Source of the DNA: a virus
Lineage: Duplodnaviria > Caudoviricetes
Virus record (IMG/VR): IMGVR_UViG_3300031519_011019
Span: 1 to 29,541 of that record
Strand: one strand, 5' to 3'
Length of the DNA: 29,541 nucleotides
Below are positions 1,561 through 19,079 of this stretch, in pieces. Below the pieces are notes generated by a model, which had not been told where the DNA came from, did not search any database, and saw nothing but the letters and a program-made list of their open reading frames with translations. Numbering within the stretch: position 1 is the stretch's first letter; every line of letters begins with the position of its first letter. A program made the translations under genes and the position numbers.

Positions 1561-1640
1561 TGTAAACTGTCCTAATGATTGTACTTCAATAAGCTTGATA
1601 TAATTATTGTACCAGTATATTCTGAGAAGTCAATAGTTCT

Positions 1641-2027
1641 TCAGAAATGATACCAACTCCTAAGAATGTTTTGAATGAATTGTACGAAACCAGATGGTGG
1701 CAATGAGTTGCCGTAGTTGCATCCTGATCTATCTCTAATCATTTTCCGTATTGTGTCTACAGTCTCGTTAAAGTCTTTGTTGTGTGTCATCCACCATCCA
1801 GCATGTCCTATCAACAGGTGGCATCGGCTACACATGGTGGCTAAGTTGTTCTCATCCAATTCTAATTCTGGCTTTACGCAGAATGGTATTATATGATGAA
1901 CCTGTAACTTCTTTTTTGATCCGCAGCATATACACTTGTTATTTTTCTCTATGAAATCATTGCGTACTATATGCCACATTGAACTTCTTTTGGTTCCGCC
2001 AAATCTTTCTGCTATTGAATCTATCAA
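1641..2027 (-). CDS. HNH endonuclease
   Basis: CxxC...LQVHHIIP...NLATMCSRCH motif; TTG start after GGGGG RBS. Confidence 0.85.
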   Translation of the reverse strand: MIDSIAERFGGTKRSSMWHIVRNDFIEKNNKCICCGSKKKLQVHHIIPFCVKPELELDENNLATMCSRCHLLIGHAGWWMTHNKDFNETVDTIRKMIRDRSGCNYGNSLPPSGFVQFIQNILRSWYHF

Positions 2028-11291: not shown

Positions 11292-11381
11292 GTCTATATT
11301 ATACTATTTATCGCCTCCCTTGTCAAGGTTTATAATGGTCATTGTAATAGCCGCCGCAACAATTAATGGTCCTAACATATA

Positions 11382-11516
11382 TCAAGCCTCCTTGCTAAAT
11401 GATTTTTCAACGTCAGCATGTGTTACACGCCGCCCGTCATCGAGCACAACATGTGTTGTGGTAATACGCACTACCACGCCACTATCAAACTTGGAACCAA
11501 TACCTAACAGTTTCAT
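11382..11516 (-). CDS. Hypothetical protein (44 aa)
   Basis: Hand-translated; AAGGAG RBS; promoter at 11543-11571. Confidence 0.55.
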   Translation of the reverse strand: MKLLGIGSKFDSGVVVRITTTHVVLDDGRRVTHADVEKSFSKEA

Positions 11517-11557
11517 ACCATCTCCTTCTAGAGTAAACTTATATTCTAACACACGTC

Positions 11558-11827
11558 TTACGAAAAGTCAAACTGGGTTTGATTTTTAAGATACCTCTTA
11601 GAGGCTTCACGTTTGCCTCTCACGTCTTTTTGAGTCACACCCTTTACTCTGCCTCTCCAAACCTTGTAACCCTGCTCTGTCATATCCTCACAGCCTGTAG
11701 CACGTACCTTGTAATCAATGAGCTTTTCATTGTGGCACACACCAAGAATATTTTCGATCACATGCCACGCGGGCTTAGTTGCGTTCGAATCTGTGAATAC
11801 TTCAACTTTAAATGTAAACTTCTTCAA
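11558..11827 (-). CDS. Hypothetical protein
   Basis: 89 aa; TTG start after AAGGAG; overlaps upstream stop. Confidence 0.65.
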   Translation of the reverse strand: MKKFTFKVEVFTDSNATKPAWHVIENILGVCHNEKLIDYKVRATGCEDMTEQGYKVWRGRVKGVTQKDVRGKREASKRYLKNQTQFDFS

Positions 11828-13120: not shown

Positions 13121-13315
13121 CTAAGTGTCTAGTCCAGTCAAACAAATTTCTGTTCTCACATATTCCAAGTCTGCACCGCATTCACAGCCGGGGGTTCCGT
13201 TGTCTTGATACCAGTCGGGGCCATACCAAGCGTTAGCATCCTCACAGTATGGACATTGCCAGAACATCAGTACCCTATGATTAGCAATCTCAAAATACTT
13301 ATCTAAGCTATACAT
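13121..13315 (-). CDS. Small Zn-ribbon protein
   Basis: CPYC...CECG; AAGGAGG RBS. Confidence 0.7.
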   Translation of the reverse strand: MYSLDKYFEIANHRVLMFWQCPYCEDANAWYGPDWYQDNGTPGCECGADLEYVRTEICLTGLDT

Positions 13316-14087
13316 TCGCTTCCTCCTTCGCTGTCTTCTTCAGTATCCTTAACGCTGCTGCTGCTTCGCTACCCTTTGGCTGCACACCATGAATGAGTAG
13401 AGCGAAAGATTGATTTCTTCGTGCCGGGTCGGCAGCGTGTGAATCGTCATTATCTATTTCAAGACCCTTCTCGGCGGCTTCCTCTTTTGAGAAAACTACT
13501 ACAGCCTCACGTAGTCCGTACTCTGCTATGGCTGAATCTTGCGTACCGCCTCGGCTGGCAGTCAATACCAAGTTAGCAGGTATGTTCGTGATATTCTCAA
13601 TCCAGAATTGTAGGCTCTTCGTGTAAGCATAAAACAGGATATCAGGACGGCGGCAGGCTACCAACATCCAAGCCCGGAAATACATATTGTTGAACATGTC
13701 ACCGGCTACGTGGATACGAACCACGGCGGCATCCTTTGGTAATACTTCAATCAATTTGTCGGCCATCTCAAAACTGCTCTTGCAATCAAGCATGGCATCA
13801 CCGTTACGCTTGCGGTTATTATATACGTTAGTGAACAACACTTCTTGACTAGCAGAGAAGCAACGGAATTGTGTTTTTGGGCCATCCTCAATGGTACGCT
13901 TTCCGGTCTCTTCGTTTACCCTTGCACGGCTACGGCATAGCATCGCCATAGGGCAGAACACACCAGATAGCAGATCGAAAGAATACACTTTGGCAGATGA
14001 TCGACCGATCTTGCGATCCAACCACTTCTTGAGACTGAGAGCCTTGTAGAGCTTCTTGAGTTTGTCGTTTGCTTTATTGAATTTCAT
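13308..14087 (-). CDS. Gp88-like phage protein (Cys-containing)
   Basis: CPMAMLC...CFSASQE, VRIHVAGDMF, FYAYTKSL and LVLTASRGG motifs of the GP88 family. Confidence 0.75.
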   Translation of the reverse strand: MKFNKANDKLKKLYKALSLKKWLDRKIGRSSAKVYSFDLLSGVFCPMAMLCRSRARVNEETGKRTIEDGPKTQFRCFSASQEVLFTNVYNNRKRNGDAMLDCKSSFEMADKLIEVLPKDAAVVRIHVAGDMFNNMYFRAWMLVACRRPDILFYAYTKSLQFWIENITNIPANLVLTASRGGTQDSAIAEYGLREAVVVFSKEEAAEKGLEIDNDDSHAADPARRNQSFALLIHGVQPKGSEAAAALRILKKTAKEEANV

Positions 14088-14236
14088 CTTTGTTCTCCCG
14101 TTAGTTCCTTACTTGCTATACATATATAATAACACATAATAGATAATAGTCAAGCATAATCTCAGATTATTATTTCTAATTATTCTCTTGACTTTATATT
14201 ATGACATGTTACAATGGTAATATAAGGAGAAACGAA

Positions 14237-14389
14237 ATGACAATCGACAGAATTATCAACTGCATCCACTACAACAGCTGCCTACCACCACGACCAGAAG
14301 GTGTGGGCGAAATGCGATGGAATGGAATGATCAAAGCCGCAATGACACTTCATAAAGTAATCGAAATCGAAAGGAGGGGTCGAGCATGA
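14237..14389 (+). CDS. Hypothetical protein (50 aa)
   Basis: AAGGAG RBS; promoter TTGACT-16-TACAAT at 14188-14215. Confidence 0.65.
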   Translation: MTIDRIINCIHYNSCLPPRPEGVGEMRWNGMIKAAMTLHKVIEIERRGRA

Positions 14390-14583
14390 TAAACGAACAA
14401 TACACAGAGGATGAGGTAGAAGCGATTCGAGCCGCATGGTCTGATCTTTACGTAACAAGCAAAGTTCGTAGGGACGTATGGCCTCAAATTGATCTAGAGT
14501 TATTGGCTGACGCGGCTGCTGATACACTCAACCAGCTGGAACTGGTTTTTCCTTTCCTTTTAGATAAGAGTCACCTTGACTAG
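14386..14583 (+). CDS. Hypothetical protein
   Basis: AGGAGG RBS; ATGA overlap. Confidence 0.7.
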   Translation: MINEQYTEDEVEAIRAAWSDLYVTSKVRRDVWPQIDLELLADAAADTLNQLELVFPFLLDKSHLD

Positions 14584-14617
14584 ACACTTAGTATTACCTA
14601 TAATAAGAGAGGGCGAA

Positions 14618-14785
14618 ATGGATAACAACCTACAAACCTTTTTGAGAGAGCAACTTCAAGAAGATATCGTATCTTACTTTGACGGATATCTACAGCCACC
14701 TTTTACGTTCACTAACGACGATAAGGAAAGCATGGTAGACGACTTGTGCCAAATAGTAATCAACAGAATAGGAGAAAGCGAATGA
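14618..14785 (+). CDS. Hypothetical acidic protein (55 aa)
   Basis: Promoter TTGACT-AGACAC..-17-TATAAT at 14576-14604; GAGGG RBS. Confidence 0.65.
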   Translation: MDNNLQTFLREQLQEDIVSYFDGYLQPPFTFTNDDKESMVDDLCQIVINRIGESE

Positions 14786-14931
14786 GACGACCTAGTACAA
14801 TAACGATCCCAAAGAATGAGGGGGCGAATTTAGCTGACCTTATAACTAACTTACATTATCAAGGTATATCATTCCAAGTAATGACAGAGGATAATAATTA
14901 CATAATAACACTTGACAAACTAAAAATATAG
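14782..14931 (+). CDS. Hypothetical protein (49 aa)
   Basis: AGGAG RBS; ATGA overlap. Confidence 0.65.
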   Translation: MRRPSTITIPKNEGANLADLITNLHYQGISFQVMTEDNNYIITLDKLKI

Positions 14932-14939
14932 TATATAAT
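14912..14939 (+). promoter_or_regulatory. Sigma70-type promoter for the tRNA-like RNA
   Basis: TTGACA-16-TATAAT; predicted +1 about G14946. Confidence 0.8.
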
Positions 14940-14945
14940 ACATAT

Positions 14946-15057
14946 GTAGCAGGACATAGGAAGCTAGGCGTTACCGAACGTTCACAGGTCTGGTTGTATC
15001 GGCAACTTGGCAGTGAAAAGACGTCCTATCGGGTGCAAGTCCCGGCTGCTGCTACCA
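14946..15057 (+). ncRNA. tRNA-like RNA (acceptor-like stem, T-arm, 3' CCA, no D-arm)
   Basis: 5' GTAGCAG pairs with the 3' end; (T)CGGG-TGCAAGT-CCCG(G) T-arm; ends ACCA; starts at the predicted +1. Confidence 0.7.
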
Positions 15058-15061
15058 ATAC

Positions 15062-15266
15062 AATAGATGGACATGGTGTGAGACAGAATAACGTTACGCG
15101 AAAGTCTCACAGGAAACAGTAATCCCTGATACGGGTGAGGCTCCTAAATCCAACATAATACATAGCTGTGGGCGATTTCCTCTCACCCTTCACTGACTCT
15201 GCGATCAACCGTCCGGTTGGGCCGAGACACTCTTAATGCCTCAACCCCTCGCGGGTGGGGTATCAG
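15062..15266 (+). ncRNA. Candidate structured RNA downstream of the tRNA-like RNA
   Basis: Helices 15077-15084/15104-15111, 15126-15132/15260-15266, 15133-15139/15182-15188 and 15206-15210/15215-15219; no credible ORF. Confidence 0.55.
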
Positions 15267-15466
15267 TTATTTGAGGGGTATATCTCCCCTATTCGAGGGG
15301 TACCATCCCAAATTTCTTGCGTCAACATTTCTACCTGCATGGCAAGCTGTTTCGCCCGCACCTCTGCTGGTACCGTGTTGTCTCCCATCGCTTCCAGCAA
15401 TCTCATGGAGAATTCGCCCAGTGTATCATATAATTCATCATTTGTAAAGTATTTAGCTTCGATCAT
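15263..15466 (-). CDS. Hypothetical protein
   Basis: 67 aa ORF. Confidence 0.65.
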   Translation of the reverse strand: MIEAKYFTNDELYDTLGEFSMRLLEAMGDNTVPAEVRAKQLAMQVEMLTQEIWDGTPRIGEIYPSNN

Positions 15467-15638
15467 TTTTGAGTTTTACCCTTCTAAGTTTTTCGGCTGC
15501 ACATTGCTTGACGATATACCCGCATGGTACCGCGTTGCGTGGCTCTGGCCTATCGCACATCCACTGCCCGCACACTCGAATCCAAGCATCCAACTCTGTG
15601 GTCGTCATGTCGGCTACATTCATTTTGAAATTGTCCAT
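15453..15638 (-). CDS. Hypothetical protein
   Basis: 61 aa; AAGGA RBS; promoter at 15688-15716. Confidence 0.6.
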   Translation of the reverse strand: MDNFKMNVADMTTTELDAWIRVCGQWMCDRPEPRNAVPCGYIVKQCAAEKLRRVKLKNDRS

Positions 15639-16085: not shown

Positions 16086-16113
16086 TTGACAGACACTTTT
16101 TGCCTGCTATAAT
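16086..16113 (+). promoter_or_regulatory. Antisense-facing sigma70 promoter
   Basis: TTGACA-gacac..-16-TATAAT, then GGGCGA and a C6/G6 hairpin. Confidence 0.7.
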
Positions 16114-18854: not shown

Positions 18855-19079
18855 TTAGGAGGGGATACACCCTCTCTGGTAGGCGTCTTCGGTTTTGTGA
18901 TCTTCGTTGGTCTCGATATGATATTTCACCATCTCGACATCGGTTGTCTCTACTAAAATCTCGTCCTCATATTTCAGAGTTAAGACATGGTTCGAGACTT
19001 CGCAAGAATAGCTTTCGTCATTGTCGCAAGTATCGAGAATAAAAAGCACGGTATCGACGTATTTTTGAGCGTTTGACAT
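18855..19079 (-). CDS. Hypothetical acidic protein (74 aa)
   Basis: GGAG RBS; promoter at 19122-19150. Confidence 0.65.
   Translation of the reverse strand: MSNAQKYVDTVLFILDTCDNDESYSCEVSNHVLTLKYEDEILVETTDVEMVKYHIETNEDHKTEDAYQRGCIPS

Follow-up and report, generated by a model that had tools for sequence, protein, structure and literature searches.

Natural RNAs that build their own quaternary structure have been recognised only recently, and most of them are very large. Hairpin loops that pair between RNA molecules, giving dimers or rings, are also known from retroviral dimerisation hairpins and from phi29 pRNA. In phage T4, the RNAs RNAC and RNAD sit in the tRNA gene cluster. For OLE and GOLLD, Kretsch and co-workers use adjacent-nucleotide covariation between palindromes in loops as an argument for symmetric intermolecular kissing loops, with the logic that adjacent bases are unable to pair within one chain (PMC12286853). 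T4 RNAC and RNAD are described as small stable phage RNAs in PMC9697503. The double T-loop consists of two interdigitated pentanucleotide T-loops that form almost without Watson-Crick pairs (PMC4810234, PMC4919913).

The DNA analysed here, which we call the window, is the whole stretch of 29,541 nucleotides. It is a phage fragment of 29.5 kb from a virus record, with an estimated completeness of 19%. It encodes a large terminase, a Clp protease, a sigma factor, DNA-repair genes and many small ORFs; the terminase is only ~25% identical to those of cultured Bacillus phages. The RNA locus forms a short plus-strand island flanked by minus-strand gene blocks. Upstream of the RNA, at 14201-14931, lie four small plus-strand ORFs of 62, 65, 55-69 and 49-61 aa, which have promoter-like sites of their own at 14188 and 14576 and no PHROG match. 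On the other side, a second sigma70 promoter with all 12 consensus positions matched (16086-16113, plus strand) faces into the G+C-rich hairpin that serves as terminator of the DUF7249 gene on the minus strand, and may drive a short antisense RNA.

We searched for relatives by words, patterns and models. Sequence scans for exact words from two stretches of the window gave no match. A 15-mer of the T-arm of the tRNA-like module described below listed at least 120 loci, mostly by chance, and two were extended by BLAST among the matches listed; a longer degenerate pattern led to four loci. A pattern for the core of the second module, module B, led to eight viral contigs and 27 metagenome stretches (26 without L149, a chance match; another, L167, is the window itself), and a hairpin pattern added two more viral contigs, L170 and L172. 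Pooled, the relatives comprise 23 distinct module B cores. All module B relatives found are uncultured, marine-type phages, and they include one complete genome, G004, with a length of 159,659 bp. Three forms of the array had no blastn match in 50,697 phage records, and no cultured phage there carries it. Prokaryote genomes of 185,579 species (one each) gave a single match, by chance, within a coding region, and a search for related loci by way of the neighbouring GP88 protein found none.

Catalogues of known RNAs were equally silent. No Rfam 15 family reached its gathering score in the whole window, and nothing appeared in 14400-15500 at E up to 10; ten homologous loci returned only two chance snoRNA rows from Rfam at E up to 1. 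Rfam 15 covariance models of the T-box leader and of RNase P RNA matched neither the window region nor the ten homologous loci. A full-text literature search found no paper describing the RNA. Six of our contig names are absent from the searchable files of the csRNA catalogue PMC10690425, and the family could sit among its 8,495 IMG/VR candidates. Overall, this is an uncatalogued modular non-coding RNA family of uncultured marine phages, and it is not in Rfam 15.

Comparison across aligned loci showed that the locus is an array of independently closed modules, whose coordinates in the window are collected in Table 1. A TTGACA/TATAAT-type promoter lies before the array in at least 19 homologous loci. 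Since the fully matching promoter of the window ends at 14939, its spacing would place the start of transcription near G14946, the first base of module A. We found no terminator-like site on the plus strand between 14946 and 15297. The motif AATACA occurs at 14937, 15057 and 15157, that is, at all three module borders of the window, and a linker of the type (U)ACAAUACAUU likewise stands between modules in homologues. The AAUACA linkers were also considered as internal promoters and rejected, with a plausible -35 element in one case only.

Table 1. Positions in the window of the promoter, modules and structural elements of the RNA array.
Feature	Position	Strand	Basis or remark
Sigma70 promoter, TTGACA + 16 nt + TATAAT	14912..14939	+	12/12 consensus matches
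Module A, tRNA-like four-way junction	14946..15057	+	covariation, 19 homologues
First AAUACA linker, module A/B border	15057..15064	+	putative processing site, inferred
Module B, ~90 nt, two covarying hairpins and joining strands	15065..15154	+	alignments
Hairpin 1: stem TGTGAGAC (15077-15084) with GTCTCACA (15104-15111), 19-nt loop	15077..15111	+	
Self-complementary octamer UAACGUUA, predicted symmetric kissing-loop site	15089..15096	+	60/60 cells
Hairpin 2	15118..15142	+	covariation and RNAalifold
Variable 3' module	15162..15275	+	replaced in close relatives; not part of module B

Many phages have a third module, closed by CUGGUG/CACCAG, and some have further modules. Module order varies among loci: we found A-B, A-B-C, A-A'-B and, in G004, gene-B-C-A-D. 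In other loci module B comes right after the stop codon of a DUF7249 gene or right before a gene. Because the modules of relatives sit within same-strand operons, the convergent setting of the window is not conserved. The commonest neighbours of the array are genes for GP88, an L5 gp82-like protein and DUF7249. Two relatives illustrate the additional modules, at 1635-1772 (minus strand) in L135 and at 2300-2420 and 2540-2650 in L125. These modules are a second tRNA-like one with the T-loop UGCAACU, the one closed by CUGGUG/CACCAG, with the loop UGAAAAC or UGCAAAC, and one with a 10-bp closing stem, which has GACUCUGCG in common with the 3' module of the window.

Module A resembles a tRNA without being recognised as one. 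Its acceptor-like stem comprises 7 bp, GUAGCAG with CUGCUGC, and occurs in two registers among the 19 homologues. A long arm is closed by UAGGCGU (14965-14971) and ACGUCCUA (15021-15028), and a T-arm-like hairpin at 15029-15045 with the loop UGCAAGU is followed by the 3' tail UACCA. Across the homologues the T-arm pairs in 100% of cells and has double changes at two of its pairs, and the helix closing the long arm is likewise 100% paired, with GC replaced by AU in seven of the 19. ARAGORN and the Rfam tRNA and tmRNA models find no tRNA or tmRNA gene in the window, module A included; the same tools do detect a tmRNA and a tRNA-Leu in G004. Readings of module A as tmRNA-like or as an open reading frame were discarded, as neither is conserved. 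The G004 genes (locus L175) are a tmRNA at 11331-11670 with the tag ADTSVLALAA and a tRNA-Leu(UAA) at 18928-19002, ~11 and ~18 kb from the array, respectively. Between the acceptor-like stem and the linker stands GCCA, ACCA, GCCG or GCUA; where the window ends module A in UACCA, relatives have GCCA, GCCG or GCUA, and the 3' ends look as if a CCA-type end were made or added. No CCA-adding enzyme family was found in G000, G003 or G004.

The T-arm motif lies at most 310 nt from module B in 22 of 23 distinct loci, upstream in 20 and downstream in two; in the 23rd, which has no such motif nearby, module B stands at the start of the contig. Because of this association we treat modules A and B as parts of one array, and because their order is not fixed we regard them as independent modules and not as one fixed two-RNA machine. 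The sequence-only reading, an earlier interpretation of this DNA, had placed a structured RNA directly behind a tRNA-like one, perhaps as a two-RNA module. The first point holds, with covariation supporting the cloverleaf of module A and no terminator-like site in between; of the second, the joint occurrence stands and the notion of a two-part unit gives way to independent modules in varying order.

We next turn to module B, which we compared in 15 sequences of the window's subtype and 11 of a second subtype, with RNAalifold run on 22 distinct sequences. The 8-bp stem of hairpin 1, already noticed in the sequence together with its 19-nt loop (AGAATAACGTTACGCGAAA, 15085-15103), is paired in 100% of cells, in 15/15 and 11/11 sequences, with compensatory changes. 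In the window's subtype one position is CG, AU or GC and another AU or GC, and in the second subtype two positions are compensated. Unaided, RNAalifold predicts both hairpins, with pairs changed on both sides at seven of 16 positions overall and at six of eight in hairpin 1. In hairpin 2, outer pairs join AGU (15118-15120) to GCU (15140-15142), and invariant inner pairs join CCC (15124-15126) to GGG (15133-15135). The outer 3-bp helix is 100% paired, with one position UA in 12 sequences, GC in two and AU in one. Its hexaloop is T-loop-like, UGAUAC in the window (15127-15132) and UGAUAC or UAGAAC over the family, with U1, A5 and C6 invariant in 22/22.

Around these hairpins, the joining strands GAUGGA (GAYGGA in relatives), GGAAAC and CCUAAAUCC / CCUAAGUCC are nearly invariant. 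A further hairpin, inserted in some sequences but not in the window or in L164, has one pair that is CG, UA or GC. For the closing helix of module B there are two candidates, UGGA (15068-15071) with UCCA (15149-15152) and GGA (15112-15114) with UCC (15149-15151); a helix of the GGAU/GUCC type is 82% paired, and RNAalifold prefers GGA/UCC. Searched with a covariance model, the window and the complete relative G004 each contain a single module B. MFE z-scores are -0.46 for 15062-15266, -0.09 for 14946-15270 and -0.44 for the 3' module, and another single-sequence fold gave -0.52. Since single-sequence folds are no more stable than shuffles, the case rests on comparison, and by that comparison module B is very probably a genuine conserved RNA domain. 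The RNA proves on alignment to be real, conserved and structured, but built differently than first proposed.

In the window only, GGGUGAGG of hairpin 2 (15136-15143) can pair with CCUCUCACCC of the 3' module (15176-15185), and GUCUCAC of hairpin 1 can pair with GUGAGGC. Relatives are without these pairings, which are possible alternative folds. A reading of the array as a CsrA sponge was rejected: its GGA motifs are few and lie outside loops.

The second half of the locus departs most from the sequence-only reading, in which 15062-15266 held a hairpin followed by a multibranch domain closed by CTGATAC/GTATCAG. That interval spans two modules, not one domain. CTGATAC (15126-15132) is the closing C plus the hexaloop of the CCC/GGG hairpin, and GTATCAG (15260-15266) lies inside the 3' module; only two of the 23 distinct loci have a GTATCAG within 300 nt downstream of CTGATAC, once within coding sequence, and the multibranch closure falls. 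The 3' module itself overlaps the stop, at 15263, of a convergent ORF on the minus strand. In run X4, one contig has 120 other letters in place of 15162-15275, with the sequence before it kept, and a second contig has the form of the window; in runs X6 and X10 a variant diverges from 15161. Because relatives replace this segment or diverge at its edge, we regard the 3' half as a separate, exchangeable module. Among the fetched loci, the window's form of it occurs only in the window-type phage (L167).

Public sequencing runs gave hints of expression. The stretch is mainly present there as DNA contigs from marine or brine metagenomes. In a library labelled RNA-Seq, the pieces 15000-15058 and 15058-15134 both run straight into adapter; for one of the runs the assignment to RNA is a guess, and these are contigs only, in which DNA carry-over is possible. 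A head-to-head joint of 15000 and 15058 is seen in one low-depth contig, and an oligo-dT RNA library contains module A of a relative, up to an A-run. Together, these data hint weakly that the array is transcribed, with an end at the border of modules A and B.

The feature that sets module B apart lies in the loop of hairpin 1. In the 15 sequences of the window's subtype, this loop follows the pattern RGRA + 8-nt palindrome + YGCGANA. The octamer occupies loop positions 5-12 and reads UAACGUUA in the window and UGACGUUA, UUACGUAA or UUAUAUAA in relatives, one with G-U. All 60 of its cells are self-complementary, and double changes affect two of its four pairs (GU/UA/AU and CG/UA): pair 6/11 is GU in ten sequences, UA in four and AU in one, and the adjacent central pair 8/9 is CG in 14 and UA in one (L162). 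The second subtype has a 17-nt loop, ACCUNGGCAGCCUGAUA, whose palindrome GGCAGCC becomes GGUAACC in L151 and is again symmetric; here the centre is A-A, and the outer pair fails in 5 of 11 sequences. Because the substitutions preserve self-complementarity of the loop, central adjacent bases included, we read module B as a candidate self-dimerising domain that pairs through its palindromic loop, within a new modular phage RNA array. This is our preferred reading, and we hold it as evenly poised between right and wrong. A palindrome with covarying adjacent nucleotides, as in OLE L9.3 and GOLLD L21a (PMC12286853), is thus found here, in few independent events: the 6/11 swap occurs in one clade, and the change from CG to UA in one sequence.

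Several further observations bear on this loop. We found no partner in cis for the loop: identical loops keep company with A modules and downstream strands that differ (L160 versus L164; L145 versus L162). Four pseudoknots were tried by eye and rejected. Pairing of the hairpin 1 loop with the strand after GGAAAC meets the same loop with different strands in L160 and L164; pairing of the subtype-2 loop segment CUAGGCA with UGCCCUAG is broken by all three substitutions; the partner GUAUC in module A for the hairpin 2 loop is absent in L160; and a palindrome in module A as partner of the module B loop meets the same A with different loops in L145 and L162. In a shuffle test, an 8-nt Watson-Crick palindrome arose in 2-5% of trials (p 0.02-0.05 per loop), and with G-U allowed the observed palindrome length was reached in 4-24%; shuffles reach it this often because the loops are A/U-rich. 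By a nearest-neighbour estimate, the A/U-rich duplex of 8 bp would be weak, above all for UUAUAUAA.

Part of this covariation can be accommodated within one chain or by a protein. The loop might form an intramolecular mini-hairpin on a purine-rich internal loop, or be the symmetric site of a dimeric RNA-binding protein of phage or host, with no RNA dimer. A mini-hairpin of two pairs (5-12 and 6-11, with a tetraloop) would account for the 6/11 change, which suits such a 2-bp stem. The conserved flanks are asymmetric (4 + 7 nt, with GANA beside the stem in both subtypes) and resemble a structured platform; palindromes suit dimeric proteins, and the array keeps the same few neighbour genes (GP88, L5 gp82-like and DUF7249). 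However, the central change from CG to UA preserves the palindrome, which an intramolecular fold does not need, by the argument made in PMC12286853. Moreover, a protein site would be expected to hold its sequence and not to swap A-U for U-A, and the neighbouring proteins are without a recognised RNA-binding domain. We consider this alternative possible, though on balance unlikely.

The sequence-only reading had parsed the same loop as an interdigitated double T-loop (AGAAUA, CGAAA and a CG/CG mini-helix), which would stack on a tRNA elbow, either that of the neighbouring tRNA-like RNA or those of tRNAs of the host. The flanks of the loop are indeed conserved, RGRAU on the 5' side and GCGANA on the 3' side, the mini-helix is paired in 29 of 30 cells, modules A and B occur together in 22 of 23 loci, and the array is rich in T-loop-like hairpin loops (UGCAAGU, UGAUAC, UGAACG); reviews anticipate more such motifs in viral RNAs (PMC4810234, PMC4919913). 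Yet the motif is described as nearly free of Watson-Crick pairs (PMC4919913), and the loop centre here covaries as a Watson-Crick palindrome. The mini-helix shows no double change and one break, in L162. The candidate segments RGRAU and CGANA are present, from sequence alone, in the 15 sequences of the window's subtype; in the second segment residue 1 is C and residue 4 is A, C or U, so that the proposed YGAAA reads CGAAA, CGACA or CGAUA. The AGRRUA segment is missing entirely from the 11 sequences of the second subtype, which have a different loop, and the motif is thus not kept in all family members. Finally, because module order varies (A-B, A-A'-B, B-C-A), no fixed geometry links modules A and B. 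A double T-loop in hairpin 1 is therefore improbable, though the loop flanks may form some non-canonical platform. The accompanying impression of T-loop richness survives for other parts of the array, where loops with U as first and A as fifth base recur, namely UGCAAGU in module A, UGAUAC/UAGAAC in hairpin 2 and UGAAAAC in the third module, but not for the hairpin 1 loop.

Module B could instead serve to process the array, cutting it at the AAUACA linkers as, for instance, a small self-cleaving ribozyme or a guide for an RNase. Its invariant junction strands (GGAAAC, CCUAAGUCC) around variable helices are like those of small ribozymes, AAUACA stands at every module border, and a library fragment ends at 15058. 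That fragment end, however, is known from one low-depth contig; the linker also precedes modules with no adjoining module B, and no ribozyme family of Rfam 15 matches at E up to 10, which makes this role very improbable. That there is no functional RNA, and that convergent operons are simply separated here by a spacer with inverted repeats that serve only as terminators or DNA sites, is scarcely credible: the locus does sit between convergent gene blocks, its fold energies are ordinary, and palindrome and stem are also inverted repeats in DNA, but both modules show compensatory changes in several helices, a consensus promoter points at the RNA in the window as well as in 19 or more relatives, and the modules of relatives sit in same-strand operons, with no conserved convergent setting.

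GP88 is the single commonest neighbour of the array and has 3109 homologues in public data. A protein of this family (Pfam PF17338, E 1.5e-34) is encoded at 13308-14087 on the minus strand of the window and at 1012-1782 in L175. Its AlphaFold model (pLDDT 87) aligns best with radical-SAM enzymes: QueE comes first (Z 6.2, rmsd 5.6 Å over 173 residues), followed by viperin, spore photoproduct lyase, PFL-activating enzyme and TYW1, all with Z scores of 5-6; such values are middling. Cys45, Cys51 and Cys76 are invariant in 23 sequences. No PDB relative was found by sequence, and Foldseek found nothing at E up to 0.001. GP88 may be an enzyme that modifies nucleic acids and is linked to the tRNA-like RNA.

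Returning to the self-dimerising reading of module B, we propose the following. The array would be read as one early transcript from about 14946, and its modules would fold independently and probably be cut apart at the AAUACA linkers. Two molecules would join through the exposed octamers of their loops, giving an RNA homodimer. We infer that the array is a trans-acting early RNA tied to tRNA-like biology: in the infected cell its RNAs would work in trans, with host tRNA or translation-related machinery as the probable target. This last step, the weakest, is suggested by the tRNA-like partner and by the tmRNA and tRNA genes of the complete relative. In a more elaborate version, which we think decidedly unlikely, module B would zip two or more transcripts together so that their tRNA-like domains stand in pairs and form a bivalent tRNA decoy or scaffold, with the radical-SAM-like GP88 perhaps servicing the assembly.

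If the preferred reading is correct, a 90-nt domain with a covarying palindromic loop would provide a compact and easily testable new case of RNA quaternary structure. The array would add a new non-coding RNA family from an abundant group of marine phages, as the number of GP88 homologues illustrates, and would offer a handle on the role of anticodon-less tRNA-like RNAs during infection. It also shows that a plausible motif call, here the double T-loop, can give way to another reading once homologues are aligned.

How does the array compare with described phage RNAs and tRNA mimics? RNAC and RNAD are late RNAs of T4, whereas the array stands behind a host-type promoter among early-type genes. 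With tRNA mimics such as YrlA/Y RNA and skipping-rope RNAs, module A shares an acceptor-like stem, a T-arm-like hairpin and an NCCA-like tail. It is missed by ARAGORN and by the Rfam tRNA, tmRNA and Y RNA models, and in place of an anticodon arm it has a long, variable arm that looks pseudoknotted by eye. A Ro/TROVE gene is absent from G000, G003 and the complete G004, with positive controls, and no Y RNA model matched. Like phages with tRNA or tmRNA genes, the complete relative G004 also carries a tmRNA and a tRNA-Leu.

With the T-box stem I, the RNase P S-domain and the 23S L1 stalk, the locus has in common an RNA beside a tRNA-like RNA and purine-rich conserved loop segments, and the array has T-loop-like hairpin loops elsewhere as well. 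Unlike these double T-loop RNAs, module B has a loop centre that covaries by Watson-Crick pairing, its pentanucleotides are not conserved across subtypes, and it has no Rfam match. Retroviral dimerisation hairpins and phi29 pRNA resemble module B in the proposed pairing of hairpin loops between molecules, but their biology (genome dimerisation, packaging motor) differs and there is no homology; the window phage has an ordinary large terminase.

A close parallel is with OLE, GOLLD and ROOL, ornate RNAs of bacteria and phages. GOLLD and ROOL are borne by phages or prophages and often lie beside tRNA genes, according to PMC12286853, and here a phage RNA lies beside a tRNA-like gene. Symmetric kissing loops of OLE and GOLLD were deduced, in the same article, from covarying palindromes, and the loop octamer of module B likewise stays palindromic. 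The OLE, GOLLD and ROOL models of Rfam match module B in neither sequence nor structure, and those RNAs measure roughly 580-800 nt and more, compared with ~90 nt. They form RNA-only homo-oligomers, whereas module B offers one candidate interface, with oligomerisation predicted from sequence. Should the bivalent assembly exist, the array would be related in kind to the ROOL and GOLLD cages, in miniature and with a modular build.
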